From an uncultured Candidatus Saccharibacteria bacterium (lineage in GTDB: Bacteria > Patescibacteriota > Minisyncoccia > Phycocordibacterales > GWA1-40-21): DNA of 64,000 nucleotides. This document shows, piece by piece, positions 28 to 63,457 of the stretch. A program made the translations under genes and the position numbers. Numbering within the stretch: position 1 is the first letter of the stretch; every line of letters begins with the position of its first letter. The notes below the pieces were generated by a model. That model was not told where the DNA came from and did not search any database. It saw nothing but the letters and a program-made list of their open reading frames with translations. Where the stretch lies: the NCBI GenBank assembly GCA_964613715.1, contig CAZTJK010000003.1, positions 7,322-71,321 of the forward strand, written 5' to 3'.

Positions 28-1470
28 ATGTCGGCGATTTTTATTGCTTCATTTTTTCATTTCGGATTTTCTTTTTTTCTTTTGATTGCGCTCTGTGCCA
101 TTGCCTGCGGTTTTTACCGTAAATTTTTCGCGCGTAGTGCGGCATCGCGTCATATTCTTCTCTGTCTTGCCATATTTCTCGCAGCTTTTTCTCTCGGCAC
201 ACTGTGCGCGGATATCAAGCACGCACATCCCGAGGCCGCTGTATTGTCCGACGTCATCGGTGCCCCTGTTTCATTTTCCGGCGTGATCGTCAGAGAACCC
301 CGGCAGACCGATTCGCGCACGCAGTCTGTCGTACATATCAGCAGCATGAATATCGGCAGCTCGACGAAAACCGTTTCTGCCAAGATACTCGTTGGCAGTG
401 GACTGTATCCGGAGCTTGCATACGGTGATTTCGTCTCGGTACACGGCACGCTCGAGCGGCCGAAGAATTTTTCCTCATTCGATTATCGGAGCTATCTGGC
501 CAAAGACGATATTGTGTACCAGGTCGATTTCGCGAGCGTTGCGATCGTCTCGCACGGAAACGGCAACCGCTTCATGCAATTCCTTTTTTCCATCAAGAAT
601 GCATTTCTCGACCGCCTGCGCCGTACGATCCATGAACCGGAGGCGGGACTTGCCTCCGGCATACTGCTCGGCACTGACAATGCGCTCGATGCGAGCACGA
701 CGGCCGCATTCCGCAGCGCCGGGCTGTCGCATATTGTCGCATTGTCGGGCTACAATATCACGATCGTCGCAAGTGCTATCGCAAGACTCTTTTCCTTTCT
801 GCCGAAAATTTATACTCTATCTCTCGGCGCTCTCGGTATCGTGCTCTTCGTGCTCATGTCGGGATCGTCTGCGACGGCGCTGCGTGCCGGCATCATGGCA
901 CTTGTCGTCATCCTTGCGCAGGCGTCCGGCAGGAAATACCAGATCGGCCGAGCACTTCTTTTTGCCGCGCTCGTCATGGTGCTGGCTAATCCTGACATTC
1001 TTGTTTTTGACCTATCCTTTCAGCTTTCATTTCTCGCTACGGTTGCCATCGTCTATATTGCGCCGATTCTCGAACGGAGCATGGTATTTCTGCCCGTGCG
1101 ATTCGGCATCCGCAATACTGTCGCCTCGACGCTTGCCGCAGAGCTTTTGGTGACTCCGCTTGTGCTCCACAGCATGGGCATGCTGTCGCTTGTCGCGGTC
1201 CTCGCGAATCTGTTCGTGTTGTTCCTCATTCCGGCTGTCATGCTTGCGAGCTTTTGTACTGGTCTCCTCGGTCTTTTGTGGCTGCCGCTCTCATTGCCAT
1301 TCGCGTGGATAGCATATGCATTGCTTGCCTATATTATTGCTGTCGTGGCCATATTTGCCCAGCTACCTTTTTCATCCATATCGATCACTTGGTTCTCATC
1401 AATGCTGATGATTCTTTCCTATGCATGTATCGGCGTATGGTTCTTTTCTCAAAAACATGAACATGCATAA
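28..1470 (+). CDS. comEC: ComEC/Rec2-family DNA internalisation channel, membrane part (DUF4131 plus competence domain)
   Basis: 480-aa polytopic membrane ORF. The motif LSHIVALSGYNITIV is typical of the ComEC competence domain. A separate MBL-domain ORF follows. Confidence 0.7.
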   Translation: MSAIFIASFFHFGFSFFLLIALCAIACGFYRKFFARSAASRHILLCLAIFLAAFSLGTLCADIKHAHPEAAVLSDVIGAPVSFSGVIVREPRQTDSRTQSVVHISSMNIGSSTKTVSAKILVGSGLYPELAYGDFVSVHGTLERPKNFSSFDYRSYLAKDDIVYQVDFASVAIVSHGNGNRFMQFLFSIKNAFLDRLRRTIHEPEAGLASGILLGTDNALDASTTAAFRSAGLSHIVALSGYNITIVASAIARLFSFLPKIYTLSLGALGIVLFVLMSGSSATALRAGIMALVVILAQASGRKYQIGRALLFAALVMVLANPDILVFDLSFQLSFLATVAIVYIAPILERSMVFLPVRFGIRNTVASTLAAELLVTPLVLHSMGMLSLVAVLANLFVLFLIPAVMLASFCTGLLGLLWLPLSLPFAWIAYALLAYIIAVVAIFAQLPFSSISITWFSSMLMILSYACIGVWFFSQKHEHA

Positions 1471-2263
1471 GCGATACATCACCTTTGCGATCCTTGCCTG
1501 CCTCTTTATCATTGCGCTTTTTGTCGCGTATGCTGTCTTTCGCGAAAGCGACCGAATGCTTCGCCTGACATTTTTACATGCGGGCGCGGGCGATGCGGTG
1601 CTCGTGCGCTCGCCGTCCGGGAACTATATACTGATCAATGCCGGAGCCGATGCATCCATTCTTCGCGCGCTCGGCCGCGCCCTGCCGTTTTATGTGCATA
1701 CGCTCGATCTTGTGATCACGACCGATCATGCAATTGGCCATATCGGTGGGCTGCCGAAAGTGCTCGATGCTTACGCCGTCAAACGGTATGTATCTCTTGG
1801 TAGTGCAGGAGATACTGTATCGCAAAGAGCAGCGCAGGAAATCATTGCAGCGAATCATATTGCTTCGGATACGCTGTATGAAGGTGACTCAATCAATCTT
1901 GGCGGCGGAGCCCGGCTTTCCGCGCTTTTTGTTGCCATGCAGGTACGGGCGCATGAGCAGTCGGTTGTGCAGCTTGCGTACGGGAAAACGCATGCCGCAT
2001 TTATTTCTGGACACATCGATCAATCTGCCATTCTCCGGCTGGGAATTCGGCTGCGAAGCGACATTGCTGACCTCAATACAATCGCAGTATTTTCTCCAGA
2101 GCTTTTTTCAGCGATCGCTCCGGCATATGTGATTGCACCATCGGGGACGAATTTTAATGCTTCAACCACGGATTTTTTCTCAACGCTCAAGACAGCCGTA
2201 ATCTCCACTGCTTCCGGCGAAGCGTCATTTTCCTCGGATGGAGAGGAATTTCAAGCCTTATAA
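1454..2263 (+). CDS. Metallo-beta-lactamase-fold protein with an N-terminal TM helix (the ComEC C-terminal nuclease-like domain, encoded separately)
   Basis: It lies in a different frame from the upstream ORF. The start ATG at 1454/1460 overlaps the upstream stop (ATGCATAA). The motif LTFLHAGAGDAVLV...TTDHAIGHIGG is a degenerate HxHxDH. An alternative start at 1421 is possible. Confidence 0.6.
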   Translation, partial: NMNMHKRYITFAILACLFIIALFVAYAVFRESDRMLRLTFLHAGAGDAVLVRSPSGNYILINAGADASILRALGRALPFYVHTLDLVITTDHAIGHIGGLPKVLDAYAVKRYVSLGSAGDTVSQRAAQEIIAANHIASDTLYEGDSINLGGGARLSALFVAMQVRAHEQSVVQLAYGKTHAAFISGHIDQSAILRLGIRLRSDIADLNTIAVFSPELFSAIAPAYVIAPSGTNFNASTTDFFSTLKTAVISTASGEASFSSDGEEFQAL

Positions 2264-21572: not shown

Positions 21573-21610
21573 AAAAAGGCGGGTCGCGCGAAGCGCGACC
21601 CGCCTTTTTG
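21573..21610. terminator. rho-independent terminator
   Basis: aaaaaggcgggtcgcgcgaagcgcgacccgccttttt. Confidence 0.6.
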
Positions 21611-21614
21611 TATG

Positions 21615-21637
21615 TTGTGGAGATGGCGAGAATCGGT
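21615..21637. repeat. partial direct copy of the tmRNA 3' end (acceptor/T-arm)
   Basis: ttgtggagatggcgagaatcgg resembles ttgtggagatgggcggaatcga at 21814-21836. Twelve nt match exactly and about 20 of 23 match overall. The copies are 199 bp apart. Confidence 0.5.
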
Positions 21638-21816
21638 CACGAATAAATTTCCTGACAGAAATTTTTCGCGACCCCGGCTCGCTATTTTTGCCTTTGCTTC
21701 GTAAAACAAAAATAAAGCTGCGCCCGTTCGATTCCGACGCACGCAAAGCAGTTTGCGTGCTCCTGAATCTTACTTATAAAAATAGCCCGACACGAAGTCG
21801 GGCTATTTTTATATTG

Positions 21817-22219
21817 TGGAGATGGGCGGAATCGAACCGCCGTGCAAATGATTGTTACCGATGATTCTACAAAGTCTAGTCGAATTTTTTCGCCGAAGCG
21901 AATTTAAGTGGAAAGGCTATAAGACGACAAAATACCTTCCTGCCGATTCTCTACAGTTCATATCGCGTCGAGAATCCGCGACATATACTCTGAATTATAT
22001 TCCACCCCGGTCCGAGTAATCAGATGTGCTCGGGCGGGACGTCGCTTAGGCTATTGCGTAAGCGAAGGACGCGTTCGAAACTCCGAAATACGGAGAGACG
22101 AGAGACGCGACCTTGCGAGAAATGCTGTTTGCATTTGTCATCCTGACGGTTAAGGAGTGTACAGGGTGCTCCACTTTGCTCATGCGGGAACGGATCAGTT
22201 GTCTAGGCCGATCATCCCC
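21817..22219 (-). ncRNA. ssrA: tmRNA (SsrA)
   Basis: The 5' end GGGGATGATCGGCCTAGAC pairs with the 3' end ...GGTTCGATTCCGCCCATCTCCA (tRNA-like T-arm and acceptor). An internal tag ORF reads ...ANSISRKVASLVSPYFGVSNASFAYAIA* (stop at 22046). smpB sits immediately upstream and a terminator immediately downstream. Confidence 0.85.
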
Positions 22220-25310: not shown

Positions 25311-25360
25311 CGTACCCAAAAGAAAAATGCGGAGCAGTCCGCATTTTTCTTTTGGGTACG
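25311..25360. repeat. long perfect palindrome (22-23-bp arms, 5-nt loop) acting as a bidirectional terminator. Its right arm includes the 3' end of tRNA-Ile.
   Basis: cgtacccaaaagaaaaatgcgga-gcagt-ccgcatttttcttttgggtacg. Confidence 0.6.
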
Positions 25361-25430
25361 CCCGCCTGGATTCGAACCAGGGACCACGAAGGTATAAGCT
25401 TCGCGCTCTAACCAGCTGAGCTACGGGCGT
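25357..25430 (-). tRNA. tRNA-Ile (anticodon UAU)
   Basis: Manual fold: acceptor acgcccg/cgggcgt, D-arm gctc-agctggtta-gagc, anticodon arm cgaag-cTTATAc-cttcg, T-arm cctgg-ttcgaat-ccagg. 74 nt. The 1-72 pair is A-U and CCA is not cleanly encoded. Confidence 0.75.
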
Positions 25431-25549
25431 ATGCGCCTATGCTATAGCAAAACGAGCTTCGCGGCAATTCATTTTCTTGCTGCAAGCGGGCCCGCATGCT
25501 AGGCTCAAAAAAGAAGCAGTCACAATCCTGAAAAAGAAAGGAGCCGGGC

Positions 25550-30893: not shown

Positions 30894-31328
30894 TTAAGAA
30901 ATATCACGAGCAGGGCACACTAAAATATTTTTGCCTACCAGTTCCTTTTTAACTTTTCTGATCAACGCCGCATCATCAGAATAAACAGTTGTTTGAATTT
31001 GAAATAGTTGGGTTTGACGTTGATTTGCCGAGATTTCTGAAAACATAAGCAGTGTTGCCAGAATGGAAACGTCCCCAAATCCCGTCATGTTGTAAAAAGA
31101 ACGCCCACCATACTTGTTAAGAATCTGTCGGTAATGTTTAAGGTAAACTCCTTCATCAAAATCGTTAGTTTTGGAAATTGTAAATATTCGATCTGGAAGA
31201 TGTTTTTTATGAATTATTTCGGTCATCTCAACTTCATCCTCAACATCGGGTACCAAGAAATAATCATCTTGAAGAGTAAGATTATTTTTAAGGATATGTT
31301 GGACGGCGTTTGTATCAATGATGTTCAT
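30894..31328 (-). CDS. PIN-domain nuclease (VapC-like)
   Basis: MNIIDTNAVQHIL (the D-T-N motif). Later acidic residues are at PDVEDE, GFGDVSILA and SDDAALI. The start overlaps the upstream stop (ATGA). Confidence 0.65.
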   Translation of the reverse strand: MNIIDTNAVQHILKNNLTLQDDYFLVPDVEDEVEMTEIIHKKHLPDRIFTISKTNDFDEGVYLKHYRQILNKYGGRSFYNMTGFGDVSILATLLMFSEISANQRQTQLFQIQTTVYSDDAALIRKVKKELVGKNILVCPARDIS

Positions 31329-32521
31329 ATACCAAGCTCATTACGATATTTGCGATAGCCCTTTTTATTAGGTGCTCCCCATATCAAATATTGGGCCTGT
31401 GTACTTGGCAAAGTACCAGCTTGAATCGATCTGTTAATAGTTTGAAATGTAATTCGGCCGCAAAATTTTTCCACTGATGTTGAAATTCGTGGAGCGCGAC
31501 CTCGTCTTTTATTTTTTTTCGGAACATATGGTGGCGGTTTTAATGATTCGTATTCTTGCTTGGAGATAATTCCTCTCAGATGAAGAGTGGTAACCAGCGC
31601 CAGTGGAGAAACCTTTAGCTTGCTGGAAAGAGTATCGATTGTTGATCGGGTTACACGTTCCTTGCGTAGAGGTTCAACCTCTATTGATGGAATAAGGAGT
31701 TCTGACGTAATCGTGTGTAGTCTTGCCGGAACACCAGTTGCCTTCAACATTTTGGTTTTAAAATCCTTATCAAGAAAGTAGTTGTACTGCCCAAGACCAA
31801 TGATTGATAGGAGATAAACCAGTGTATAGATTTGCCGGCTTTCTACCTCATCCGGATTGACCTCGCTTGGAAGGAAAACAAAAGGTACCCGATCATCTTT
31901 AATGACAAAACCACTGGTGTTCCGGTAAACATCGCTTGATACGACCTGGTGCATCGGAAGAATCTTATGTGTCAGGACTCCTCGCGAGACAGTGATGTTT
32001 TTGCTTTCCACTTGACGAATAAGATATTCCAGCGCCTTTCCTTTTCCAGTAAAGCGCCACAATTGATTTCGATCAATTTCGAAATGAGAAAGGATCTGGT
32101 TCGCCGCTTGACTTGGTTGAAATCCATTTATTGACCCGCAGAATAGATTTTTAGGAAAAACAGTTGAAGTTGTCAGGAAATTTTGCTGACGGATTAACCT
32201 ATCGATGATGCGCTTCGAGGTGATATTCCCAGATCCTTTGCGTTTCGCAATAAGTTTGGGAGAGATTTTATATCGACGTTGCTTATCAATATGGTCGATT
32301 TGAATATCGAGATTAGCGGAAGTGAGAAAAAACATCTGCCAAGCAATTAGAATTATCTCGCTTTCTTTTTGGAGATCCGAAAAGTCGATTTGTCCATTGG
32401 TGAATGCAGTACTAAAAACAGGTCTGTTTATCAATCCTTCTTCGGGATAAATTTCAAGAATGCGTTTGACTACGCCATCTTCAATTTCTACGGAATTTGT
32501 ATCGTCGACTGTGACATACAT
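31325..32521 (-). CDS. hypothetical protein (398 aa) with a basic C-terminus, no recognisable domain
   Basis: Co-oriented and translationally coupled with the PIN gene. No P-loop or HExxH. The C-terminus KKNKRRGRAPRIS...KKGYRKYRNELGI is basic. Confidence 0.5.
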   Translation of the reverse strand: MYVTVDDTNSVEIEDGVVKRILEIYPEEGLINRPVFSTAFTNGQIDFSDLQKESEIILIAWQMFFLTSANLDIQIDHIDKQRRYKISPKLIAKRKGSGNITSKRIIDRLIRQQNFLTTSTVFPKNLFCGSINGFQPSQAANQILSHFEIDRNQLWRFTGKGKALEYLIRQVESKNITVSRGVLTHKILPMHQVVSSDVYRNTSGFVIKDDRVPFVFLPSEVNPDEVESRQIYTLVYLLSIIGLGQYNYFLDKDFKTKMLKATGVPARLHTITSELLIPSIEVEPLRKERVTRSTIDTLSSKLKVSPLALVTTLHLRGIISKQEYESLKPPPYVPKKNKRRGRAPRISTSVEKFCGRITFQTINRSIQAGTLPSTQAQYLIWGAPNKKGYRKYRNELGI

Positions 32522-32530
32522 AAAGTTGAC

Positions 32531-33352
32531 CTAATGAGTAGCTTCTTTTGGCGGATTGTATTCGATTTTTGGCGGTAGATCAGTCATTGCATAATGGACA
32601 AACTGCTGACCAAGTTCTGAAAGTTCATACAAATCTTCCTCATCGAAGGCTGATTCCATTGGTTTCGGGCCAGAGCGCGGCACCGGCGATCTTCTCTGGG
32701 GTGTTTTTCCGTAAAAATTACCTTCCGCATCTTTTTCCCGATGTTGTCGGATGATACCACCCATGTTGAGATCACGAATGAGGAGGCGATACAAACCAGC
32801 TTCTGGTGAGTCTTCACGCACTGGACCTTTGCCGATCTTCCGCCAAATCACTCCGCGACTTATTCCGTTTGTGTTATACACGGCAGCGATCACCTGGAAG
32901 TGTAATTCGGAGTAGGTCTTAAGCCAATCAATGAACAACCGTACCACATCGTCACTTGTAATGGTTGAAGCGGCAGCATTCGCAAGAATATTTCTGATAT
33001 AAACTCTTTTTTCCTCGCTTTCTGTCCCCGACCATTCGCGGAACGTTTTCTTCATAAGAGACTGATATTCCTTACTCTCGATCCTTTCGGCTACCTTGTT
33101 GTCATGCATATCAAGCCTTGCCATTATTTCGAGAATGGTTTGCTGTTTTTCTCGTAGTTCATCCTCAAGCATTTTTATCCAATGCTGAAAGAATTTGTTT
33201 ACTTTTTCCTGTTCGTTTTCAGACCAAGCCCCTGCCGCAGCTGAAAATAAGCCACCTGCGAATGGAACTGCGCCACCAATAACTTGCAATGCACCGCGCA
33301 CGATTTTCGGCGTTGGACCTTCTTCTGGTATATTTTTATTTTCTTCGGTCAT
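32531..33352 (-). CDS. hypothetical protein (273 aa) with a Gly/Ala-rich N-terminal hydrophobic segment
   Basis: The N-terminal segment is GALQVIGGAVPFAGGLFSAAAGAW. It overlaps the doc stop by 4 bp (ATGA) and sits 9 bp upstream of the next gene. Confidence 0.5.
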   Translation of the reverse strand: MTEENKNIPEEGPTPKIVRGALQVIGGAVPFAGGLFSAAAGAWSENEQEKVNKFFQHWIKMLEDELREKQQTILEIMARLDMHDNKVAERIESKEYQSLMKKTFREWSGTESEEKRVYIRNILANAAASTITSDDVVRLFIDWLKTYSELHFQVIAAVYNTNGISRGVIWRKIGKGPVREDSPEAGLYRLLIRDLNMGGIIRQHREKDAEGNFYGKTPQRRSPVPRSGPKPMESAFDEEDLYELSELGQQFVHYAMTDLPPKIEYNPPKEATH

Positions 33353-33810
33353 TGCGATACATCCTCAGATTGCATTGCGGCCATTTCTCTGTTATCAACC
33401 AAATGTTTTTCTATCGTTTCTGCTATTTGCTCCATGATGGTAATCCGTTCTGCTGGTTTGCTTCCTGCGATTCCCACCGCGAAATTATACAACTCTATCT
33501 TATTGATATTGAGCCATTTGCCATTTTTGTAGAGAAAATAGAATAGGCTCATGACCGCGATTCGCTTGTTGCCATTTTGGAATGGATGGTTCTTGATCAT
33601 GAGGTAAAAGAAGGTGCTGGCTTTACTCACAAGCCCTTGATATTGGTCTTTTTTGGCGAAACGGAAGAAGGGTGTTTTGATGCAACTTTCAAGCACGTTT
33701 GGAAACCGGGTACCAAAATCAGGGATCGGCTCATCCCAATTCATGAGCTTTTGAGCGAATGCAAAAGCAACGTATTCAATTTCATTGACCGTAATATTCT
33801 TTGTTCTCAT
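33349..33810 (-). CDS. doc: Doc/Fic-family toxin (death-on-curing-like)
   Basis: Fic motif HPFQNGNKRIAV (HxFx[D/N]GNKR). 153 aa. Overlaps the upstream HTH gene by 4 bp. Confidence 0.8.
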   Translation of the reverse strand: MRTKNITVNEIEYVAFAFAQKLMNWDEPIPDFGTRFPNVLESCIKTPFFRFAKKDQYQGLVSKASTFFYLMIKNHPFQNGNKRIAVMSLFYFLYKNGKWLNINKIELYNFAVGIAGSKPAERITIMEQIAETIEKHLVDNREMAAMQSEDVSQ

Positions 33811-34064
33811 TCCTTTCCGAGTTGCTTAAAGACATCCCCATACTCTATTAATGCCCGATCAATAGCTTTTTCTATTTCTTCTTTCTTTGTGGTTCCGATT
33901 GCCTTTCCAAGCAACTCTTCTAATGATTCATAGGGAATGACATAGTTACGTCCGACCTTCTGGGCTTTGATTTCTCCAGATTGGATCTTTTGGAAGACAG
34001 CTATACGGCTCAGATGCAGAATATTGGCTGCTTCTACGGTGGAATACATTGATTTTATAGTCAT
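33807..34064 (-). CDS. HTH (excisionase/MerR-type) DNA-binding protein, the putative antitoxin of Doc
   Basis: 85 aa. STVEAANILHLSRIAVFQKIQSGEIKAQKVGRNYVI is an HTH_17-like motif. It is the first gene of the operon. Confidence 0.7.
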   Translation of the reverse strand: MTIKSMYSTVEAANILHLSRIAVFQKIQSGEIKAQKVGRNYVIPYESLEELLGKAIGTTKKEEIEKAIDRALIEYGDVFKQLGKE

Positions 34065-34072
34065 ATTTGAAG

Positions 34073-34088
34073 CTTAACATATGTTAAG
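34073..34088. promoter_or_regulatory. perfect 16-bp palindrome cttaacatatgttaag, the candidate operator for the HTH antitoxin
   Basis: It lies 9-24 nt upstream of the antitoxin ATG on the minus strand. Confidence 0.45.
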
Positions 34089-34114
34089 TCTCAAGCAAGA
34101 CGATGAGCTAGCCA

Positions 34115-34160
34115 GTTCTAACATCGTCTCGGAAACAGTAACACTGGACTATGTTAGAAC
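34115..34160. repeat. 10-bp perfect inverted repeat gttctaacat...atgttagaac with a 26-bp spacer
   Basis: It sits between the island operon promoter and the tRNA-Ser 3' end and is followed by tttt on the plus strand. Confidence 0.4.
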
Positions 34161-34214
34161 TTTTGAAAATATCCTTGTGGATTTTGGTTTTTTTATTTGG
34201 GTAGGACTAAAAAG

Positions 34215-34303
34215 CGGAGACGGTGGGATTCGAACCCACGAGACCTTTAAGGGGTCTACCTCGTTAGCAGTGAGGTGCTTTCGGCCAGCTCAGCCACGTC
34301 TCC
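34215..34303 (-). tRNA. tRNA-Ser (anticodon GCU)
   Basis: Manual fold: GGAGACG...GCTGAGCTGGCCGAAAGC...cctca-CTGCTAA-cgagg, a long variable arm, T-arm cgtgg-gttcgaatc-ccacc, 3' cgtctcc. 89 nt. Confidence 0.85.
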
Positions 34304-54067: not shown

Positions 54068-54143
54068 GCCGTTGTAGCTCAGTCGGTAGAGCACGTCATT
54101 GGTAATGACGAGGTCACCAGTTCGATCCTGGTCAACGGCTCCA
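54068..54143 (+). tRNA. tRNA-Thr (anticodon GGU), CCA encoded
   Basis: GCCGTTG-TA-GCTCAGTCGGTAGAGC-cgtca-tTGGTAa-tgacg...GGTTCGATCC...CAACGGCTCCA. Confidence 0.9.
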
Positions 54144-54144
54144 G

Positions 54145-54217
54145 GCCACCTTAGCTCAGTTGGTAGAGCACATCTTTCGTAAAGATGGGGTCCGCGGTTC
54201 GATCCCGCGAGGTGGCT
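54145..54217 (+). tRNA. tRNA-Thr (anticodon CGU)
   Basis: GCCACCT-TA-GCTCAGTTGGTAGAGC-catct-tTCGTAa-agatg...GGTTCGATCCCGCG-AGGTGGC-T. It begins 1 nt after the CCA of the previous tRNA. Confidence 0.9.
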
Positions 54218-54219
54218 CA

Positions 54220-54960
54220 AAAGGACAGTTGCATTTTGTGTGCCGAGTGCTAGCATTTTCATATCCGAAAGAATTTCTGTCTGTAGGCTTTACGGCCATA
54301 GATAGGCGGATTGAGGAGCCTGGATTAGATACCCAGGTTGCGGTTGTGCAAGCGCGGACGTTGTCCGCGAGCATGGAGCCGGTTCTCGGCTATTCTGCAC
54401 AGGTAGGCCTGCGATTGCGATGGGCCACATGCCTTGTCTTGACCTCCGCCTTTGCCTTCTTTCGGATTCGGATGTTGTACCGCCGATTGCATTCGGCGGC
54501 TTAGAATCCTCCGCTTTCCATTGGGTAGCGGGGGATTTTTTATTTTAACTATGTTAGTATTTTATGGTTCAGAAAAGATGAGGTTTGAGAGGGTTCTTCA
54601 CGTCATGCTTGTCGCTTTCTGTTGTGTATGCCAGATTCAAAAACCACAACAGGTATGTTTCAAGTTGACGAACTTGTACACACCGCCTTTCCAATTTTTC
54701 TGGACAATAATAATCCCCGCGGCTTTGTCACGGGGATTTTTTGTGTCATTCTGTGCTTACTTGAGTTCAAAATGAATTGTGCTACTATTTTTGTAGGTTA
54801 GGGGCTCTCTCTCGTGCGCGAGGGAGGTACCACATCCGGATCGGAAAAAAGCTACCGATATAAGGACCGGCTGAAACGAACTTTCCCATAAATTCTGGCG
54901 AGTTCCTGCCTACCTGACCTATTCCCCTGTCTGCAGATGGGGGATTTTTTTATGGCCTTC
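54220..54960 (+). other. 740-bp non-coding region punctuated by three intrinsic terminators (54511-54545, 54713-54743, 54923-54952), candidate small RNA loci
   Basis: No credible ORF is present. The only track ORF reads through a terminator hairpin. Each of the three units of about 200-320 nt ends in a GC hairpin plus a T-run. Confidence 0.35.
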
Positions 54961-54976
54961 TGCTATACTCGACCCC

Positions 54977-55849
54977 ATGAAAGAAGAACTCGAAGCGAAG
55001 CTGAAATCATTGGAAGCCGACGTGCAACGCCCGGATTTCTGGACGGATAAGGCGAAAGCGCAGGCGACGCTCAAGGAAATCAATTTCCTCAAATCTGAAA
55101 TACTCGGCAAGAACAAATACGATGCGGGCCATGCCATCATGACCATCTTTTCCGGGGCGGGGGGCGATGATGCGGAGGATTTTTCCCGGATACTTTTTGA
55201 AATGTATTCGAAATATTGCGCCAAGCAGAACTGGGACTATCGCATCGTGGATGAGACGGAAAACGACCACGGCGGCTATCGCAATATCACGCTCGAGATC
55301 ATCGGGCCGAATGCCTACGGTCTCTTGAAGCATGAGTCTGGCGTGCATCGTCTCGTGCGCCTGTCGCCCTTCAATGCGAAAAGTCTGCGGCAGACTTCCT
55401 TTTCGCTTGTCGAAGTTGTGCCGAAAATTGATAAAGATGGCGAGATACAAGTCCCGGATACTGAGCTCAAGATAGATATCTCGAAAGCAGGCGGTCCCGG
55501 CGGACAGAACGTGAACAAGCGCGAGACGGCGGTGCGCATGGTCCATATTCCGACTGGTATCGCGGTACGCAGCGCTTCCGAGCGTTCGCAGCAGCAGAAT
55601 CGCGAGAAAGCACTCCAAGTATTGAAGGGCAAATTGTATAAGCTGAAAGAAGCGGAGGATAAGGCCAAGCAAAGCGGCATGCATATCTCGAAGACGGTAT
55701 CGATAGACTGGGGGAATCAGATACGCTCGTATGTCTTTCACCCGTATAAGATGATCAAGGATCATCGCACGGATGTGGAAACGGCGAATATCGACAAGGT
55801 ATTGAATGGCGATCTTACTGATTTCATCGACGCGGAGAAGAATCTATAA
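54977..55849 (+). CDS. prfB: peptide chain release factor 2, N-terminally reduced, with no programmed frameshift
   Basis: SPF tripeptide (RLSPFNAK) and GGQ (AGGPGGQNVNK). 290 aa. The extended -10 TGcTATACT lies 7 nt upstream of the ATG. No upstream CTT-TGA shift site is present. Confidence 0.85.
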   Translation: MKEELEAKLKSLEADVQRPDFWTDKAKAQATLKEINFLKSEILGKNKYDAGHAIMTIFSGAGGDDAEDFSRILFEMYSKYCAKQNWDYRIVDETENDHGGYRNITLEIIGPNAYGLLKHESGVHRLVRLSPFNAKSLRQTSFSLVEVVPKIDKDGEIQVPDTELKIDISKAGGPGGQNVNKRETAVRMVHIPTGIAVRSASERSQQQNREKALQVLKGKLYKLKEAEDKAKQSGMHISKTVSIDWGNQIRSYVFHPYKMIKDHRTDVETANIDKVLNGDLTDFIDAEKNL

Positions 55850-57560: not shown

Positions 57561-57596
57561 AAAGGGCGCGGGCCTTCGGCCCGCGCCCTTTTCCCT
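57561..57596 (+). terminator. rho-independent terminator
   Basis: aaagggcgcgggccttcggcccgcgccctttt. Confidence 0.65.
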
Positions 57597-57631
57597 TGAA
57601 AAAACGGCATTTTCAGGTATCATCAGCCGTA

Positions 57632-57702
57632 TTGCGGGATCGTCTAATGGTAGGACACGCCCCTCTGGAGGGTGGTATCTTGGTTCGAGTCCAAGTCCCG
57701 CA
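57632..57702 (+). tRNA. tRNA-Gln (anticodon CUG)
   Basis: U1:A72 (tgcggga/tcccgca), D-arm gtc-taatggta-ggac, anticodon arm cgccc-cTCTGGa-gggtg, T-arm cttgg-ttcgagt-ccaag. 71 nt. Confidence 0.75.
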
Positions 57703-57846
57703 GCAAAAAGAACACAGCGATTTTTGCTGCGGGAAGCAAGCGCAGAGCTTGCGTCTTGGACGAGAAGACCTTGAGTATATCGCACGGAGCCTTTGCGAGT
57801 ACGATACGAAAGGTGTACAGTGCCTGTAAGGAACGAGATGCGAAGC

Positions 57847-57862
57847 GGTCCAAGTCCCGCAG
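57847..57862 (+). repeat. exact 16-bp direct copy of the tRNA-Gln 3' end (gtccaagtcccgcagc)
   Basis: It is identical to 57688-57703 and sits 159 bp downstream, immediately before the AT-rich island. Confidence 0.6.
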
Positions 57863-57874
57863 CTAGCAAATCTC

Positions 57875-57880
57875 GGTATA
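57875..57880 (+). promoter_or_regulatory. -10 TATAAT 9 nt upstream of the ATG at 57890
   Basis: ctcggTATAATcatcaacATG. Confidence 0.3.
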
Positions 57881-57889
57881 ATCATCAAC

Positions 57890-58147
57890 ATGCTTGTTGT
57901 ATCGAAAAAAATTTCATTGCTTCTTCTCGGCATTACGGCTATCACCTGCTCCAGGATCTTGTTTCTTTGTATTAACGATCCTGAAGGCCCAAATCTGCTC
58001 GTCGTTCTAGGTATGGCAGCGATTCTCTACTTTTTGTCTTTGGCAGTATATGTATTCCTTCCCGCAACCGTCAGTCTCAAGAAGCTCCCATTGGCTATTT
58101 TGACACAGCTGCTCATAGCCGCCGGATTATATTTTTGTTTGCGCTGA
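57890..58147 (+). CDS. hypothetical small membrane protein
   Basis: 85 aa, 3 TM. AT-rich. Confidence 0.35.
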   Translation: MLVVSKKISLLLLGITAITCSRILFLCINDPEGPNLLVVLGMAAILYFLSLAVYVFLPATVSLKKLPLAILTQLLIAAGLYFCLR

Positions 58148-58268
58148 GAGTTCCAGCCTCGCACGAGCCGGAGTATTTTCTCATTTCTCATTCATGCATG
58201 CTATACTTGCATCCAGTTATAAGCTAAACATATTCATATGAATCCAGTCCTGCATTTCGAAAAAAGAT

Positions 58269-59111
58269 TTATCGCCATATTTTTCCGAATATCCTTTCAG
58301 ACAATGCTATAAGCTCAGAATCGTTTTTAATTGTTTCAAAAATAGGATCTTGATCATATTCTTTCCATCTTTCAAGGACTGACATTTTTAAGGCATCTTC
58401 TTTGAATTTCATCCCATCGAAAGAGCTGCCGCCTCCATAAGTCGAAACTTTTGGCCATTGAGCTACTTCTAGCTCGCAACCCAGCTTTTTTGAAAGCTCG
58501 AGCCTGTAATCCTCATCCAGGAACCATGTATTGAAGTTTATGGTAATTTTGTCAGGTAGATGATTTGTCATTCCCAAAAATTCTCGAGCGTGCGATTTCC
58601 AGACAGTTATCGTATGTGCATAAGCTGCGCTTTTTAGTTTGATATCCTGAAGCGTCAATTCTCGGCCGCTTTTTATCCTGCTTGCGATGAAATTATAAAT
58701 ATCTCGCAGAATGAGTATACATTTCCTATTTTTGTACGGAGCGAAGTGATTGGCAAAATCATCTACTGACATGGGTAAATGGGCAGGATCGAGATTCTCG
58801 AAATTCATCATTAATAGATTTTTTTCAGAATTGAAAATCCTTGTTTTTATATCCCTTGTTTCTGGAAGGAATTCCTTAAGCTTTTCCTTTACTAATCCAT
58901 GCTTGACCCAGCTATCGCTTATCTTAGAATAGTATTTTCTGTTATTATAGTGATATTGGACTCGGTTTTCGAATAGAGAGTCAGGCGATGAGAAATCGCA
59001 ATAATTGAAGAAGAATTTTTCCGGCCCAAATTGCTCGTAGATCCATTCCATGACCCCATGGTGGCCGCTACGGGACATCGCTATCACGAGGAATAAGTTT
59101 TTATTAGGCAT
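58269..59111 (-). CDS. sulfotransferase-like P-loop protein (tentative)
   Basis: 280 aa. The N-terminal LFLVIAMSRSGHHGVMEWI resembles a PAPS-binding 5'-PSB loop. AT-rich island gene. Confidence 0.35.
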   Translation of the reverse strand: MPNKNLFLVIAMSRSGHHGVMEWIYEQFGPEKFFFNYCDFSSPDSLFENRVQYHYNNRKYYSKISDSWVKHGLVKEKLKEFLPETRDIKTRIFNSEKNLLMMNFENLDPAHLPMSVDDFANHFAPYKNRKCILILRDIYNFIASRIKSGRELTLQDIKLKSAAYAHTITVWKSHAREFLGMTNHLPDKITINFNTWFLDEDYRLELSKKLGCELEVAQWPKVSTYGGGSSFDGMKFKEDALKMSVLERWKEYDQDPIFETIKNDSELIALSERIFGKIWR

Positions 59112-59126
59112 AGATTACTTATCAGT

Positions 59127-59618
59127 ATGGAAATAAAATCAAAAATTAGCAATACTGACGGAAGCGAGACAGAAATTACTTACATCGATACTCAATCGTT
59201 TGATAGTTTAGAGTGCGATAAAGTACGGCAAGCATACGGAGTATGTTTCCTCAACGGACAGATGCTCATTGTTTTTAATCGTAAACGCAAAGCCTGGGGA
59301 CTCGTGGGCGGCAGTCTTGAAGTAGGAGAAACCTATGAGGAATGTTTGAAAAGGGAGGTGGAAGAAGAGGCAAATATGCAGGTTCTTAATTTCCAGCCAA
59401 TCGGCTATCAAAAAGTGGATATTCCTGCAAAGGGATTCATATATCAGCTTCGCTATGTCTGTATTATTGAACCACTCGGTCCTTTTGTCGCAGATCCAGA
59501 CGGTTCAATTACTGAGATCAAGCTCATCGACCCTACAACTTACAAAGAGTATTTTGATTGGGGGGATATTGGCCATCATATCATTACCAAAGCAATCGAA
59601 ATCAGTCGGTCGCTTTAA
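59127..59618 (+). CDS. Nudix hydrolase
   Basis: Nudix box GGSLEVGETYEECLKREVEEEANM. 163 aa. Confidence 0.8.
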   Translation: MEIKSKISNTDGSETEITYIDTQSFDSLECDKVRQAYGVCFLNGQMLIVFNRKRKAWGLVGGSLEVGETYEECLKREVEEEANMQVLNFQPIGYQKVDIPAKGFIYQLRYVCIIEPLGPFVADPDGSITEIKLIDPTTYKEYFDWGDIGHHIITKAIEISRSL

Positions 59619-59680
59619 TTGACTAACCTTGACTTTTATAGTACTCTTCTTAGAGAAAACCTTTTTGAAAGGAGGGTGTC

Positions 59681-60214
59681 ATGCTCGATGAAATAGTTCA
59701 CATTATGCTGAAGCCTGACACTCTCGAGTGCGGCATCCGTAATGTAATCCTTGATGAACTGTTGAAGGTTGGCGGAAGCCTGATTTTTTCCAAACGGTTG
59801 GTTCTTACCATGTCGCAGATTTCAGTCATTTATCCTCACTTCGGTAATGAGAGGGCTAAAGGAGCAGTCTTCCATTATTTTACTTCCCGTGAAACCGAAC
59901 ATCTTGCTTTTGGGGGACCAAAAGGAATCCATGCTCGGTATCAAGAAGCGAAAGGAAAAACGGGAACCGGGATTGGTATAAAGGGAAAGTATTATACTCG
60001 ATATACCAAACTGACTGAGGACGAGCTCAGAAAATGGTTCGACGGGACTCTTGAGAACATACAAGATATTGATCTTGAAATGTTCGGAAGAGACATCCTC
60101 CATATTCCGAATTCTCCCGAAGAAAGTATAAATGATATCTTTTCTGTTTTTGAACCTTGTGAAATAGCTGTCATCAGCACGTGGTATCAGTTTCCGAAAA
60201 GAACTTGCGTGTGA
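59681..60214 (+). CDS. nucleoside-diphosphate-kinase-like protein (divergent)
   Basis: N-terminal IVHIMLKPD and RDILHIPNSPEE are reminiscent of the NDK NIIHGSD region. 177 aa. Confidence 0.4.
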   Translation: MLDEIVHIMLKPDTLECGIRNVILDELLKVGGSLIFSKRLVLTMSQISVIYPHFGNERAKGAVFHYFTSRETEHLAFGGPKGIHARYQEAKGKTGTGIGIKGKYYTRYTKLTEDELRKWFDGTLENIQDIDLEMFGRDILHIPNSPEESINDIFSVFEPCEIAVISTWYQFPKRTCV

Positions 60215-60238
60215 TACGCAAGTTCTTTTTTAAAAAAG

Positions 60239-60862
60239 ATGCAGGATAAAAAAATTGTCATCTTCGATTTTTGGCAAACTTTGGCTGACGCTCAGCTCAA
60301 GCCTTCTTTCTTGTTGGGATTTTTTCCACTACCCAAGCCAGATTTGCATACTTTTTTAACAAGACTTTCCAGTTCAGATCTTTATTTAAAAGATGTTGAG
60401 ACCATCAAGGGAGTAGCGAATTTCCTTTTGCATTTCGATATTACAGATAAGAAAATCGTCGAAAAGATATCTTCCGCCTGGAAAGATTTAATCAAGACTG
60501 TTTATATTATTCCCGGAGCTTTAAAAATGATATCCGATCTGAAAGCACATGGGCATGCGGTATGTCTCATGAGCAACACTGATAAATTCGGCCATGAGCA
60601 TTTTCCTTTCCCTGAATTTTTTAAAAAATTCGACATGTTTTTCCTTTCATATAAAGAGGGTTTTGCAAAGCCAGATTTAAAATGCTGGCAGATTATTCGA
60701 GACCGTTCGGGGTATACTTATGACGATATGATTATGATAGGGGATAGCATGGAAAATGATATCTTACCCGCTCATGAGCTGGGCATAGATTCTATCCATA
60801 TTCAGAGGCAGGGAGACTTTGGCGTAGTGTATGACCGCCTGATAAACCATTCCGATGTATAA
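60239..60862 (+). CDS. HAD-superfamily hydrolase
   Basis: Motif I VIFDFWQTLAD, motif II CLMSNTD, motif III K (KPD), motif IV GDSMENDI. 207 aa. Confidence 0.75.
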   Translation: MQDKKIVIFDFWQTLADAQLKPSFLLGFFPLPKPDLHTFLTRLSSSDLYLKDVETIKGVANFLLHFDITDKKIVEKISSAWKDLIKTVYIIPGALKMISDLKAHGHAVCLMSNTDKFGHEHFPFPEFFKKFDMFFLSYKEGFAKPDLKCWQIIRDRSGYTYDDMIMIGDSMENDILPAHELGIDSIHIQRQGDFGVVYDRLINHSDV

Positions 60863-61931
60863 ACTGAAAATCGCATTCGTATATCCAAAGCGTTATTCCT
60901 TTTATCCTCCTGATTATGTATCTAGAGGCTTAGGAGGAACCGAAAGCACTCTCGTGCTTCTCGCGAGAGCTATCGCTAGACTCGGGCATGCAGTCGAAGT
61001 GTATAATTGCTGCTTCAAGCCGGGCGTTTATGATGGTGTTGTCTGGAGTTCTCTGTTAGATATCGATTCAAAAAGAGAATATGACGTAGTCATTTCTTTG
61101 CGCCTTCTTGAGACATTCCGAGACTATCATTTCAATGCAAAGCTCCGTGCTTTGTGGATCCATGACGAAGCCCTGAGTGGTGCTGAAGATTTTGATAAGA
61201 ACGGGATTGTAAATACGTGGATTTCAGTTTCGGAAACTCAAAAGAAAAGCCTATGTCGAGATCAATATATCGAAGATACACATTGGTTCGTCACTCGCAA
61301 TGCGTATGATGAGGACATATATACTGACGAGCTGAGAAAGACGAAGAAGATAAAAAACAGAGCCATTTACTGCAGCGCTCCCGATCGAGGGCTTAAATAT
61401 TTGCTTGAAATGTGGCCTGCAATAAAAGCAGAGGTACCTGATGCGAGTCTCGTTGTAACTGGCAGCTATGCTCTTTGGGGTACGTCTGACGAGGAAAATA
61501 AGCGGATCTTCGCCGATATTTATTCAATGGCTGACAAAACCGATGATGTTCAAATTCTCCAGAGGGTTTCCAAGCAAGAACTCTCAAAACTTCAGGTAGA
61601 AAGTGAGGTCATGCTGTATCCTACGGATTTCAACGAGATGTTTTGTATAAGCGCCCTCGAGTGTTTTGCTGCTGGAACGCCGATTATTTCTTCCAAAAGA
61701 GCCGCGATGATTGAACGAGTGGAAGAAGGTAAAACAGGATTTCTTATCGATGGAGATCCGAAAAACCTTGATTGTAAAGAACGATTCATTGCAACCGCGG
61801 TGAGATTTTTGAATGATGAAAAGATGAAACATGAATTCTCAAAAAATACTCTTCGTTCTTCTGCGAAATTAAATTTCGATAATCTTGCTCGGGAATGGGA
61901 AATTGAATTAATGAAGCGCCTTGAAATATGA
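60855..61931 (+). CDS. GT-B glycosyltransferase (family 4-like)
   Basis: C-terminal EALECFAAGTPIISS...GKTGFLI matches the GT4 nucleotide-sugar binding region. 358 aa. Confidence 0.7.
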   Translation: MYKLKIAFVYPKRYSFYPPDYVSRGLGGTESTLVLLARAIARLGHAVEVYNCCFKPGVYDGVVWSSLLDIDSKREYDVVISLRLLETFRDYHFNAKLRALWIHDEALSGAEDFDKNGIVNTWISVSETQKKSLCRDQYIEDTHWFVTRNAYDEDIYTDELRKTKKIKNRAIYCSAPDRGLKYLLEMWPAIKAEVPDASLVVTGSYALWGTSDEENKRIFADIYSMADKTDDVQILQRVSKQELSKLQVESEVMLYPTDFNEMFCISALECFAAGTPIISSKRAAMIERVEEGKTGFLIDGDPKNLDCKERFIATAVRFLNDEKMKHEFSKNTLRSSAKLNFDNLAREWEIELMKRLEI

Positions 61932-63457
61932 AAGTGGCAATCGGAGTATGTGCGAGGAACGAAGAGGCATGCATTATCCAGACATTGGATTCAATCCTTG
62001 TGTCCGCAGCGAGGATTGAGAACCTAGATTGGTCGCTTTTCGTGTGTGCGAACGGATGTACTGACACCACTGTCGATCTCGTGAGAAGCTGGTGGAAGGG
62101 AAATCCCGGCTGTAAAGGCACTCTTGTTGTTTTGGATCAGGCGAATTTAGTCGAAGCTCAGAGGGAAATCGTAAATATTTCAAAAGCCGCAGGATATAGC
62201 TCTATTATATTTTTCGATGCGGATGTAGTAGTCGATCCTCTCTGTATAGGTGCATTATTGAACGCTGCTCAAGCGGATGAAGTTCAGGCTGTTTATGCAG
62301 TTTCAGTACCGATTACGAGAGACAAGCGGACTCTTATCGAGAGGGCTTTGAACCAATACGATCTCTCATCCTCTGTTTTCACTGAAAGGAAACATCTTCA
62401 TGGTCGGGGCTTCCTGATTAAGGACTGGTATATTCCCATGACAAGTCCCAAGCTTGTGGCTGATGATATGTATCTCTCTTTTTCCCTGCTTAAAAAATAT
62501 GGTCCTCAGTCAATAAAAAAAGTCCCTTCAGCAAAAGTTTATTTCAGACAGATAATTTCTTTTACGGACTTTTACAAGGCCTATCGTCGAAGGAGTATAG
62601 AATTAAATAAATGTCTTGCGCTATTCCCTGAATTCAAGCTATTACCGGCAGATCAAATAAATCGCAGGATACTTTGGAAAAAGCTTTTCAGCGAATCGTC
62701 CAGACGGCTACTCTTGTGGTTCGTGCTATTCTTCTTTAAATTAGTCTCCCGCATCCGATATGCATTTGAAAAGAATATTTCTGAAGAATGGATACCAACA
62801 GATACAAGCAAGAGAACAAAGTACAGACCCATACTGGTCCTTGTGGAGGGTCTTGATTGCTCTGGGAAAAAGACCGTCTCCCGGATACTTCAACAGAAAT
62901 TTTTGGACGCAGGCATTTCTTGCAGGGTTAATAAAGGCCCTCTGAATTCAAGGGGGTATAGAGCTCTCTCAAGATTAGTGAGCCTATACCCATTCCCAAA
63001 TGTTATCAGGTCTCTCGTTTACTCGCTGGAGGGTATTGGGGAAAAAGAATGGTTCCGATATTTTTCGACCCAAGTAGTAGTGCAGATTTCTTCACCATAC
63101 CGTAATTGGGCGTATGCACATTGCAATAAAAGCCACTTAAGAATCTTTATTTCCCAAAAAATAAAGAGGTTTATTGCGCACTACGATTTCATCTTTTTTC
63201 TCACGGCCCCTTACGGTATTCGTCTTCAACGTCATGCAGCGCAAGTTTCTTCGGGTGAGAATCCGGACCACATTGAAAAAAGATTTTTTGGAGAACAGAA
63301 GTTTAATGAAATGGAATTTATTCTGAAGAATCTTTTCAAAGTATCTAACCCAATTGATGCTGAATTTGACAGTTCGATCCAATCATCGGTAGCTATCGCT
63401 ACGGATATTTTTTCACGCGTTGTTATAAAAATCCCCAAAACATCAGACATTGTCTAG
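61928..63457 (+). CDS. fusion protein: a family-2 glycosyltransferase domain plus a thymidylate-kinase-like P-loop domain
   Basis: The N-terminus MKVAIGVCARNEEACIIQTLDSIL...DADVV is GT2. After about residue 300, ILVLVEGLDCSGKKTVSRIL is a TMK-like P-loop. 509 aa. Confidence 0.6.
   Translation: MKVAIGVCARNEEACIIQTLDSILVSAARIENLDWSLFVCANGCTDTTVDLVRSWWKGNPGCKGTLVVLDQANLVEAQREIVNISKAAGYSSIIFFDADVVVDPLCIGALLNAAQADEVQAVYAVSVPITRDKRTLIERALNQYDLSSSVFTERKHLHGRGFLIKDWYIPMTSPKLVADDMYLSFSLLKKYGPQSIKKVPSAKVYFRQIISFTDFYKAYRRRSIELNKCLALFPEFKLLPADQINRRILWKKLFSESSRRLLLWFVLFFFKLVSRIRYAFEKNISEEWIPTDTSKRTKYRPILVLVEGLDCSGKKTVSRILQQKFLDAGISCRVNKGPLNSRGYRALSRLVSLYPFPNVIRSLVYSLEGIGEKEWFRYFSTQVVVQISSPYRNWAYAHCNKSHLRIFISQKIKRFIAHYDFIFFLTAPYGIRLQRHAAQVSSGENPDHIEKRFFGEQKFNEMEFILKNLFKVSNPIDAEFDSSIQSSVAIATDIFSRVVIKIPKTSDIV

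Follow-up and report, generated by a model that had tools for sequence, protein, structure and literature searches.

Following the tRNA-Gln gene of the window, as we call the whole stretch of 64,000 nucleotides analysed here, are an exact copy of that gene's own 3′ end and then a block of genes of low GC content. tRNA 3′ ends are classic integration sites, and the locus raises the question of what the two repeats delimit. The original prediction took them for attL- and attR-like relics of an integration that had brought in the gene block, with a second such event at the tmRNA gene. The 16-mer pair does not mark the border of the block, which lies outside it, and we describe here what the pair does enclose, how the enclosed unit is distributed in related genomes and how its presence may be explained.

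Anatomy of the element behind tRNA-Gln

The tRNA-Gln gene (anticodon CTG, CCA not encoded) occupies positions 57633–57704 on the plus strand (ARAGORN; Rfam tRNA, 54.7 bits), and located about 10 nt 5′ of it is a promoter-like site on the same strand (57596–57623; TTGAAA, 16 nt, TATCAT; 10/12 matches). Ending the gene is the 16-mer GTCCAAGTCCCGCAGC (57689–57704, referred to here as A), composed of the last two T-loop nucleotides, the 3′ strands of the T-stem and of the acceptor stem, the discriminator and one further base. It occurs exactly twice in the window, the second copy, A′, lying at 57848–57863, and none of 100 shuffles gave two matches. The original prediction was thus correct about the exact duplication and, as ARAGORN and Rfam confirm, about the first copy being the tRNA 3′ end; the true coordinates are one higher than the 57688–57703 and 57847–57862 that it gave.

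Between the two 16-mers lie approximately 143 bp of structured, non-coding DNA. The hairpins foreseen there are supported by folding and repeat analysis of the interval, which also contains an inverted copy of the tRNA end (57721–57734 and 57755–57766) that had been overlooked. Directly after the gene is a plus-strand spacer formed by AAAAA, an 11-nt loop and TTTTT (57705–57725), part of a palindrome at the tRNA end in which TTTTTGCTGCGGGA (57721–57734) and 57696–57709 make a perfect 14-bp inverted repeat. The inverted copy, B, consists of two plus-strand segments found by inverted and direct repeat analysis: B2, GCTGCGGGA (57726–57734), is the inverted acceptor 3′ strand, and B1, CTTGGACGAGAA (57755–57766), is the inverted T-stem 3′ strand with T-loop and is complementary at 10/12 positions. 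Splitting B is a 20-nt junction hairpin (57735–57754; stem 57736–57741 with 57747–57752), which interrupts it exactly at the junction of acceptor and T-stem (65/66) and stands at the same place in relatives. Beginning with B1 is a folded module named T1 (57755–57854, plus strand; covariance model R1, 52.9 bits, E = 3e-12), the sole copy in the window, and leading into A′ is a 13-nt linker, GAGATGCGAAGCG (57835–57847, plus strand), which is identical in the related loci L016 and L019.

A′ is the 3′ strand of a closing helix: it can pair with B1 and B2, completing a branched fold (z = −2.9). Three mutually exclusive pairings are available among the tRNA end, B and A′, and in silico folding of the whole transcript prefers the tRNA end paired with B (−93.4 kcal/mol) over the cloverleaf together with the closing helix, P1 (−81.1 kcal/mol). 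In three sequencing runs, the contigs of this strain (Logan L003, L004 and L005) end at 57704/57707 and resume at 57732, that is, at the palindrome of tRNA end and inverted copy; these breaks could reflect population heterogeneity, by loop inversion or excision, or coverage.

The element is followed on the plus strand by a flank of 26 nt (57864–57889) and an ATG at 57890. The flank contains the TATAAT box predicted after the second copy, at 57877–57882 and not at 57875–57880, and resembles the sequence directly after the tRNA-Gln gene of L014, which has no element: 17 of the 26 nucleotides are identical, including TATAATCATC. The cassette thus sits between tRNA-Gln and a sequence that appears to be the flank originally following this gene, and the low-GC block lies beyond both element and flank. 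No plus-strand terminator was found between the promoter-like site and the ATG at 57890.

A second element behind the tmRNA gene

The parallel drawn with the tmRNA locus holds. The last 21 nt (21814–21834) of the tmRNA gene (21814–22219, minus strand; Rfam RF00023, 77.3 bits) recur at 21615–21635 with 18/21 identities and an exact 12-mer inside, a similarity matched in 0 of 100 shuffles. Extending over 21615–21775 on the minus strand is an element of the same superfamily, whose parts were found by repeat and fold analysis and by comparison with relatives: an inverted T-arm copy (21726–21736, minus strand), a junction hairpin with the family consensus GCAAACTGCTTTGC (21739–21760, minus strand) and a conserved core, GAGCCGGGGTCGCGA (21666–21680, minus strand), common to elements behind tRNA-Thr, tRNA-Met and tRNA-Gln in relatives. 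Hairpin terminators flank it at about 21776–21810 and at 21573–21609. Both window elements, one unit at tRNA-Gln and one at tmRNA, measure approximately 160–190 bp and follow the same order of inverted 3′-end copy split by a hairpin, folded module and direct copy.

A family of trailing elements in Paceibacteria

The gene just 5′ of tRNA-Gln is ftsX, and a search with FtsX places the organism among the Paceibacteria (Patescibacteria, also known as the Candidate Phyla Radiation, CPR); the closest relative, at 76% FtsX identity, has a 682-kb chromosome, and the order ftsX, tRNA-Gln is syntenic in the closest loci. Related Paceibacteria loci from 80 relatives (1.22 Mb) contain 246 tRNA/tmRNA genes according to ARAGORN, including 238 tRNA genes with scorable flanks. 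An exact copy of a gene's own 3′ end (at least 10 nt, within 400 nt) lies downstream of 48 of these 238 (approximately 20%), versus 8 upstream, and an inverted copy downstream of 33, versus 6 upstream.

The host genes in these loci are tRNA-Gln, tRNA-Thr, tRNA-Asp and both tRNA-Met genes, to which the window adds its tmRNA gene. The same architecture is seen in L016, L018, L019, L057, L011, L015, L027, L037 and others, several of them behind tRNA-Gln, and its arms vary with the tRNA that they adjoin: CCAGG stands in both the tRNA and A′ of L016, with CCTGG in B, and both direct copies of L018 contain CGCAAC. Presence is patchy, as the tRNA-Gln orthologues of L007, L012, L014 and L017 have no element, and one tRNA may be followed by different module types in different genomes. 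The T-loop, T-stem and acceptor of the tRNA itself are a better match to B than the sequence to the left of A′ is, and B is complementary to the T-loop and the trailer of the tRNA, more than pairing with A′ requires. Lying between tRNA and B in many relatives is a terminator, so co-transcription with the tRNA cannot be general, and most copies are followed by a terminator and not by a gene.

A scan of metagenomes with a strict T1 pattern gave at least 120 loci. Among the matches listed are 125 T1 copies, with a co-oriented tRNA or tmRNA gene within 3 kb upstream in 88 cases and within 150 nt in 75; an exact copy of the host tRNA end of at least 10 nt follows 52 of these 75. Hosts within 150 nt, among the matches listed, are tRNA-Ser, Arg, Gly, Leu, Val, Lys, Glu, Gln, Ile, His, Thr, Asp, Ala and Cys, and tmRNA; with tRNA-Pro at 150–400 nt, the 14 tRNA species make at least 15. 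Several copies scored as having no tRNA still come after a tRNA-like 3′ end. The proteins encoded next to 120 metagenomic T1 copies, once clustered, comprised only syntenic housekeeping genes, YraN, a CCA-adding enzyme and an HTH protein.

Separated by a single nucleotide in the window are two tRNA-Thr genes (GGT and CGT, 54068–54218); in L009, L013 and L020 a trailing element of the same family parts the orthologous pair.

Folded modules

The inner parts of the elements fall into at least six recurrent types, which we refer to here as T1 to T6, and the start of the repeat is roughly type-specific (approximately 20 nt for T1 and 15 nt for T2). T1 is defined by the closing helix P1, the junction GAAG, a stem a with a GAG-hairpin, the motif GGUACUG, a 5-bp hairpin with a UGUAA loop, and covariation; the window sequence 57755–57854 qualifies. 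Inside its P1 are GAAG (57764–57767), stem a (57768–57772 with 57810–57814), enclosing GAG and an inner hairpin, then GTACAG (57815–57820) and the 5-bp hairpin with a TGTAA loop (57820–57834). It deviates from the family in having GTACAG instead of GTACTG and in the 13-nt linker ahead of A′.

An alignment of 14 T1 sequences describes a three-way junction with compensatory changes in 26 of 31 pairs. The covariance model retrieves 25 copies in the related loci and the one in the window; across 25 sequences, 92.7% of the alignment cells are paired, versus 66% in shuffles and 40–54% with slid partners, and 29 of the 31 pairs are altered on both sides. Covariation is also present in T2 (26/37 pairs); T1 and T2 are at least two covariation-supported RNA motifs missing from Rfam. 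Of 33 elements, 30 give the more stable fold on the tRNA-sense strand, the advantage averaging 5.8 kcal/mol (p = 4e-6), and the T1 alignments contain conserved unpaired nucleotides, GNRA-type loops and G-U pairs.

T1 copies within one genome do not resemble one another significantly more than copies in different genomes do (p = 0.12). Nearest to the window T1 is the one at the tRNA-Gln gene of L010 (84% identical), a relationship that suits vertical inheritance as well as mobility.

Tandem arrays and ORF-carrying units

Additional tRNA-end copies occur in relatives 0.5–2.5 kb downstream, where they bound ORF-bearing segments whose cargo is in all cases co-oriented with the tRNA. Tandem elements at tRNA or tmRNA genes, parted by partial tRNA copies, are found in L015, L030, L033, L034, L037, L047, L056 and L066, and tandem units also in L205, L226 and L247. 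The elements thus act as arrays of cassettes, with the tRNA 3′ end as their anchor. In L047, where the ORF encodes a Ser_hydrolase protein, and in the third unit of L033, the order is ORF, hairpin, B, module, A′. L056 differs from L066 by one additional ORF-less unit, and the ORF units of L034 and of L056/L066 are without B. The unit in L030 has an acceptor arm unlike that of the adjacent tRNA and carries its module inside an otherwise tRNA-like body.

Several related arrangements were observed. At about 760–1200 (minus strand) of L247, a tandem T1 pair with tRNA-Ser-like arms ending in CCGCCA has no adjoining tRNA and comes after a conserved region of no assigned identity and a TATAAT box. 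Elements of type T5 (L015 8311–10833; L008 and L009, downstream of tRNA-Gln) hold their cargo between inverted and direct tRNA copies and have a conserved start, CTCGAGC.ACGCTCAAGTCGCGTCG, after each repeat; the L015 cargo comprises a 348-aa ORF, radical-SAM-like as judged by eye, and a 209-aa ORF. Placed between tRNA-Asp (1533–1611) of L058 and a 13-nt copy of its 3′ end is an ORF of about 85 aa (approximately 1150–1532, minus strand), GIY-YIG-like by eye, possibly a homing-endonuclease cassette occupying a comparable site.

The low-GC gene block

The gene block starting at the ATG (57890–63457) is treated here as a separate feature, delimited by GC, GC3, ORFs, Pfam and the flanks of relatives. 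GC falls from about 0.51 to 0.39–0.43 from 58 kb onward. GC3 is 0.64–0.70 in prfB, ftsE and ftsX, 0.48 in the first ORF, 0.39–0.41 in the next six genes and 0.50 in the VOC gene; the proposed comparison with core genes accordingly finds the block deviant (0.39–0.48 versus 0.64–0.70). Its genes are a membrane ORF of 85 aa, a minus-strand ORF of 280 aa, ORFs for Nudix, NDK-like and HAD proteins, one for a glycosyltransferase of the GT1/GT4 type and one for a fusion of GT2 with a P-loop domain. Pfam agrees with the assignments of Nudix, HAD, GT1/GT4, GT2 and VOC; NDK falls below the cut-off (E = 0.0036), and no Pfam family was found for the protein called sulfotransferase-like or for a TMK domain.

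By exact-protein look-ups, the window was lengthened by 740 bp with a Logan contig; the look-up for the first ORF of the block gave no match. The gene following VOC, which we read as VIT1-like from its sequence rather than from a database match, has a GC3 of 0.635, and the block therefore ends near 63.5–64.0 kb. Its start at 57890 and its low GC are as originally described; it does not run off the window. A search of the window and the added 740 bp revealed no third 16-mer at up to 4 mismatches; the motif screen gave no integrase in the window, and Pfam detected no recombinase among the block's proteins.

The block as such is absent from the 10 kb downstream of ftsX in all 80 relatives. Five of its seven genes have no homologue there, as the predicted island would lead one to expect; for the other two, the first ORF and the Nudix gene, some relatives have homologues downstream of tRNA-Gln. 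Probably the block is a variable region that was acquired, or replaced, separately.

A second low-GC block (GC 0.40–0.42; 30894–34303) lies directly downstream of a tRNA-Ser(GCT) gene (34214–34303, minus strand). It has four minus-strand ORFs, one of them encoding a Fic/DOC protein (33349–33810; PF02661, E = 6e-9) and the other three having no Pfam match; no copy of the tRNA-Ser(GCT) end was found near it.

Searches for associated enzymes and known counterparts

No recombinase, reverse transcriptase or nuclease was found in or adjoining the elements in the window, the related loci or the flanks of the metagenomic T1 copies, and a regex-level motif screen of all ORFs of the window and the 80 related loci (1.2 Mb) gave no tyrosine recombinase. 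No excised form was seen, nor any same-strain allele that was truly empty; both results count against mobility. Rfam holds no family for the element, as searched in the window at gathering thresholds and at E up to 10, in seven related loci at gathering, and with canonical T1, T2 and T3 at E up to 10; apart from tRNA and tmRNA, all matches were spurious hairpins. blastn against phage and plasmid records gave no match to the elements, exact-pattern T1 and T2 scans of viral contigs gave chance matches only, and literature searches found no described equivalent of the family, the nearest being the tycheposons.

Hammerhead, HDV-like and twister ribozymes, group I and II introns, retrons, IS200/IS605 or IS110 guide RNAs, casposons and primer-binding-site-like elements were considered and set aside, as they do not agree with the elements in core motifs, partner genes or geometry. 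The match of the window B to the genomic trailer (AAAAA), and not to a CCA end, argues against a primer-binding site.

Origin and possible role of the element

With some reserve, we consider it probable that a non-coding cassette of about 160 bp (57705–57863), with the second 16-mer as its downstream arm, belongs to a family trailing tRNA and tmRNA genes, that the low-GC block is a separate feature, and that the cassette is co-transcribed with tRNA-Gln and processed. At the DNA level, a unit duplicates the 12–21 nt with which an RNA gene ends, beginning in its T-loop or T-stem; since the gene's end is duplicated and A′ closes the element, the tRNA stays intact. Units would be inserted or duplicated in this interval, presumably by site-specific recombination, and may stack in tandem and carry ORFs. 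On the sense strand, B would pair with A′, rebuilding a helix like that of acceptor plus T-stem and clamping the folded module, here the T1 three-way junction; the hairpin in this helix would stand where nucleotides 8–48 leave a real tRNA. The promoter-like site at 57596–57623, with no terminator before 57890, suggests that the window element is most likely co-transcribed with tRNA-Gln. The tRNA-like clamp would let tRNA-processing enzymes or RNase III excise the element from the transcript, separating tRNA, module and downstream mRNA. The low-GC block, starting after the flank, would be a separate acquisition or a variable region.

Weighing against parts of this reading are the flank homology to L014, which amounts to 17/26 bases, and the pairing properties of B: a simple clamp for processing predicts neither the preference for pairing of the tRNA end with B nor the complementarity of B to T-loop and trailer. 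That preference in the whole transcript makes a role in competing pairings possible, or one as an attC-like single-stranded DNA hairpin.

The latter role is central to an explanation in which B, module and A′ form a folded single-stranded DNA recombination site, like attC or the hairpin attP of CTX phage, whose stem is a mimic of the duplex at the tRNA gene's 3′ end, with this duplex standing in for attI or attB, the cassettes being moved by a recombinase encoded elsewhere. The cassettes with the order ORF, B, module, A′ (L047 and the third unit of L033), the tandem arrays, the ORF-less units and the uniform orientation of the cargo all fit it, as does B being a full inverted copy of the target that includes T-loop and trailer. 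The L030 and L247 units, owning tRNA-like arms that differ from those of the adjacent gene or stand without any tRNA, also agree with it, and a strand-specific fold suits a single recombinogenic DNA strand too. We nevertheless judge this explanation unlikely: the motif screen of the 1.2-Mb loci gave no tyrosine recombinase, of integron type or other; the T-loop GTTCGAR and the B1 motif YTCGAAC, compared by eye, do not fit the core sites GTTRRRY/RYYYAAC; several ORF units (L034, L056/L066) have no B; and conserved unpaired nucleotides, GNRA-type loops and G-U pairs look more RNA-like. The element might instead be a fixed cis-acting RNA, immobile and derived from a local duplication of the tRNA end, serving as a leader or switch in which B pairs alternatively with the tRNA end or with A′ and governing tRNA-Gln maturation or expression of the downstream genes. 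The three exclusive pairings, a P1 that closes a multi-helix junction as in riboswitch aptamers, the 84% identity of the window and L010 T1 copies at the same tRNA and the missing terminator ahead of the downstream ORF in the window would all be in keeping with this. Such a fixed RNA is quite unlikely, however, given that the same module types stand behind at least 15 tRNA species and tmRNA, that different types occur at the same tRNA, that presence is patchy with tandem arrays and stand-alone copies, and that most copies precede a terminator rather than a gene.

Highly improbable, and already largely refuted, is the view that the 16-mers are attL/attR-like relics of an integration that brought in a low-GC island of sugar-modification genes. 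Its appeal derives from the deviant composition of the block, its absence downstream of ftsX/tRNA-Gln in the 80 relatives, and the established use of tRNA 3′ ends as integration sites, known also from tycheposons. The repeat pair, however, brackets about 143 bp of non-coding DNA, leaving the island outside; no third copy (up to 4 mismatches, window plus 740 bp) or integrase motif was found; A′ is followed by a flank resembling the one after tRNA-Gln in L014; and homologues of the first ORF and the Nudix gene lie downstream of tRNA-Gln in relatives. The second 16-mer is moreover the 3′ strand of a helix conserved across many genomes that lack the island, the very circumstance that the original prediction had named as speaking against it. 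What survives of the proposed integration at two RNA genes is the duplicated 3′ ends, such as DNA inserted there would leave, with further copies bounding tandem segments in relatives.

Extending the preferred reading of a tRNA-trailing cassette, we tentatively raise the possibility, itself rather doubtful, that in Paceibacteria small cassettes form integron-like arrays for which tRNA and tmRNA genes are the anchors, each cassette ending in a folded site built from an inverted tRNA-end copy, one of the conserved junction modules T1–T6 and a direct tRNA-end copy. The modules would then form a novel class of structured nucleic acids directing their own insertion at any tRNA gene, as hairpin mimics of the target or as guides; alternatively, they would gate tRNA maturation by way of competing pairings. 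A recombination or RNA system of either kind would have no described counterpart.

Comparison with known systems

Every one of the nearest known systems has features in common with the elements but departs from them in a defining one. Integrative elements at tRNA and tmRNA genes, reportedly treated by Williams in 2002, offer one comparison. The repeats of the elements described here start in the T-loop or T-stem, like those of the T-loop class of integrase sites. As in these integrative elements and in tycheposons (Hackl et al., bioRxiv 10.1101/2020.12.28.424599), insertion is at the 3′ part and leaves the gene intact, and tycheposon-type arrays likewise have partial tRNA copies as direct repeats and tandem stacks with cargo, in streamlined genomes. 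The tandem arrays with partial tRNA copies are present in our relatives; a hallmark tyrosine or large serine recombinase with a replication module was not found in the loci. The units here, unlike those elements, are mostly 110–260 bp and ORF-less, with no integrase, primase or other hallmark gene in the loci, and they have an inverted target copy and a conserved covarying module, which are not described for those systems. Relative to a tRNA-integrated island of the tyrosine-integrase type, deviant composition and absence from relatives apply to the block, but the 3′-end repeats are 143 bp apart instead of flanking it, and no integrase was found next to the putative att site (Pfam on the block, regex motif screen of the window and 80 loci).

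Integron cassettes with attC sites share the arrays of short, often promoter-less, co-oriented cassettes, some of them ORF-less, as well as a terminal imperfect palindrome in which structure is conserved over sequence, with a strand-specific fold. The anchor here is a tRNA gene and not an attI site beside intI: no intI was found, the upstream gene is ftsX and the motif screen gave no tyrosine recombinase. The repeat is 12–21 nt of tRNA sequence in place of a 7-nt core, and unpaired nucleotides are conserved within the variable part.

tRNA-like processing signals are known from mascRNA at the MALAT1 3′ end, from mitochondrial tRNA punctuation and from engineered tRNA scaffolds. An acceptor/T-stem-like helix within a longer transcript is common to these and to the elements, and by analogy could recruit RNase P or RNase Z; here, in contrast, the T-loop nucleotides are paired or replaced by a large module and the L-shape is not reproduced. 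The Rfam mascRNA model matched only the tRNA-Gln gene itself, not the element, and at 13.2 bits against a threshold of 42.5.

Similar to MITEs, the elements are small, ORF-less, repeated and patchy, with terminal inverted repeats (B and A′) and a duplicated target at the flanks. They differ in that the inverted repeats are copies of the target, changing with each tRNA, that the length of the duplication depends on the module type (approximately 15–21 nt), and that no parent transposon is known; none was found in pattern scans of viral contigs or by blastn against phage and plasmid records.

Significance and other features of the window

The family is large and apparently undescribed, residing downstream of tRNA and tmRNA genes in Patescibacteria with small genomes. 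If it is as it appears, about one-fifth of the tRNA genes in the sampled regions are trailed by a folded element that copies their tail in both orientations. The adaptation of the same few modules to nearly every tRNA species poses a testable question of how the arms are retargeted. The elements are also a candidate route of gene-cassette gain in Patescibacteria, in which, to our knowledge, few mobile elements are recognised. For annotation, partial tRNA repeats in such genomes should not be read as evidence of a neighbouring island.

Among other features of the window, the prfB ORF (region 54790–55849) is only 290 aa long, with no frameshift site seen upstream of it. The 160-nt intergenic stretch at 54790–54950 has no Rfam match at gathering, looks structured and ends in a terminator. 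Located at 25353–25431 on the minus strand is a tRNA-Ile gene with anticodon TAT, which is rare in bacteria.
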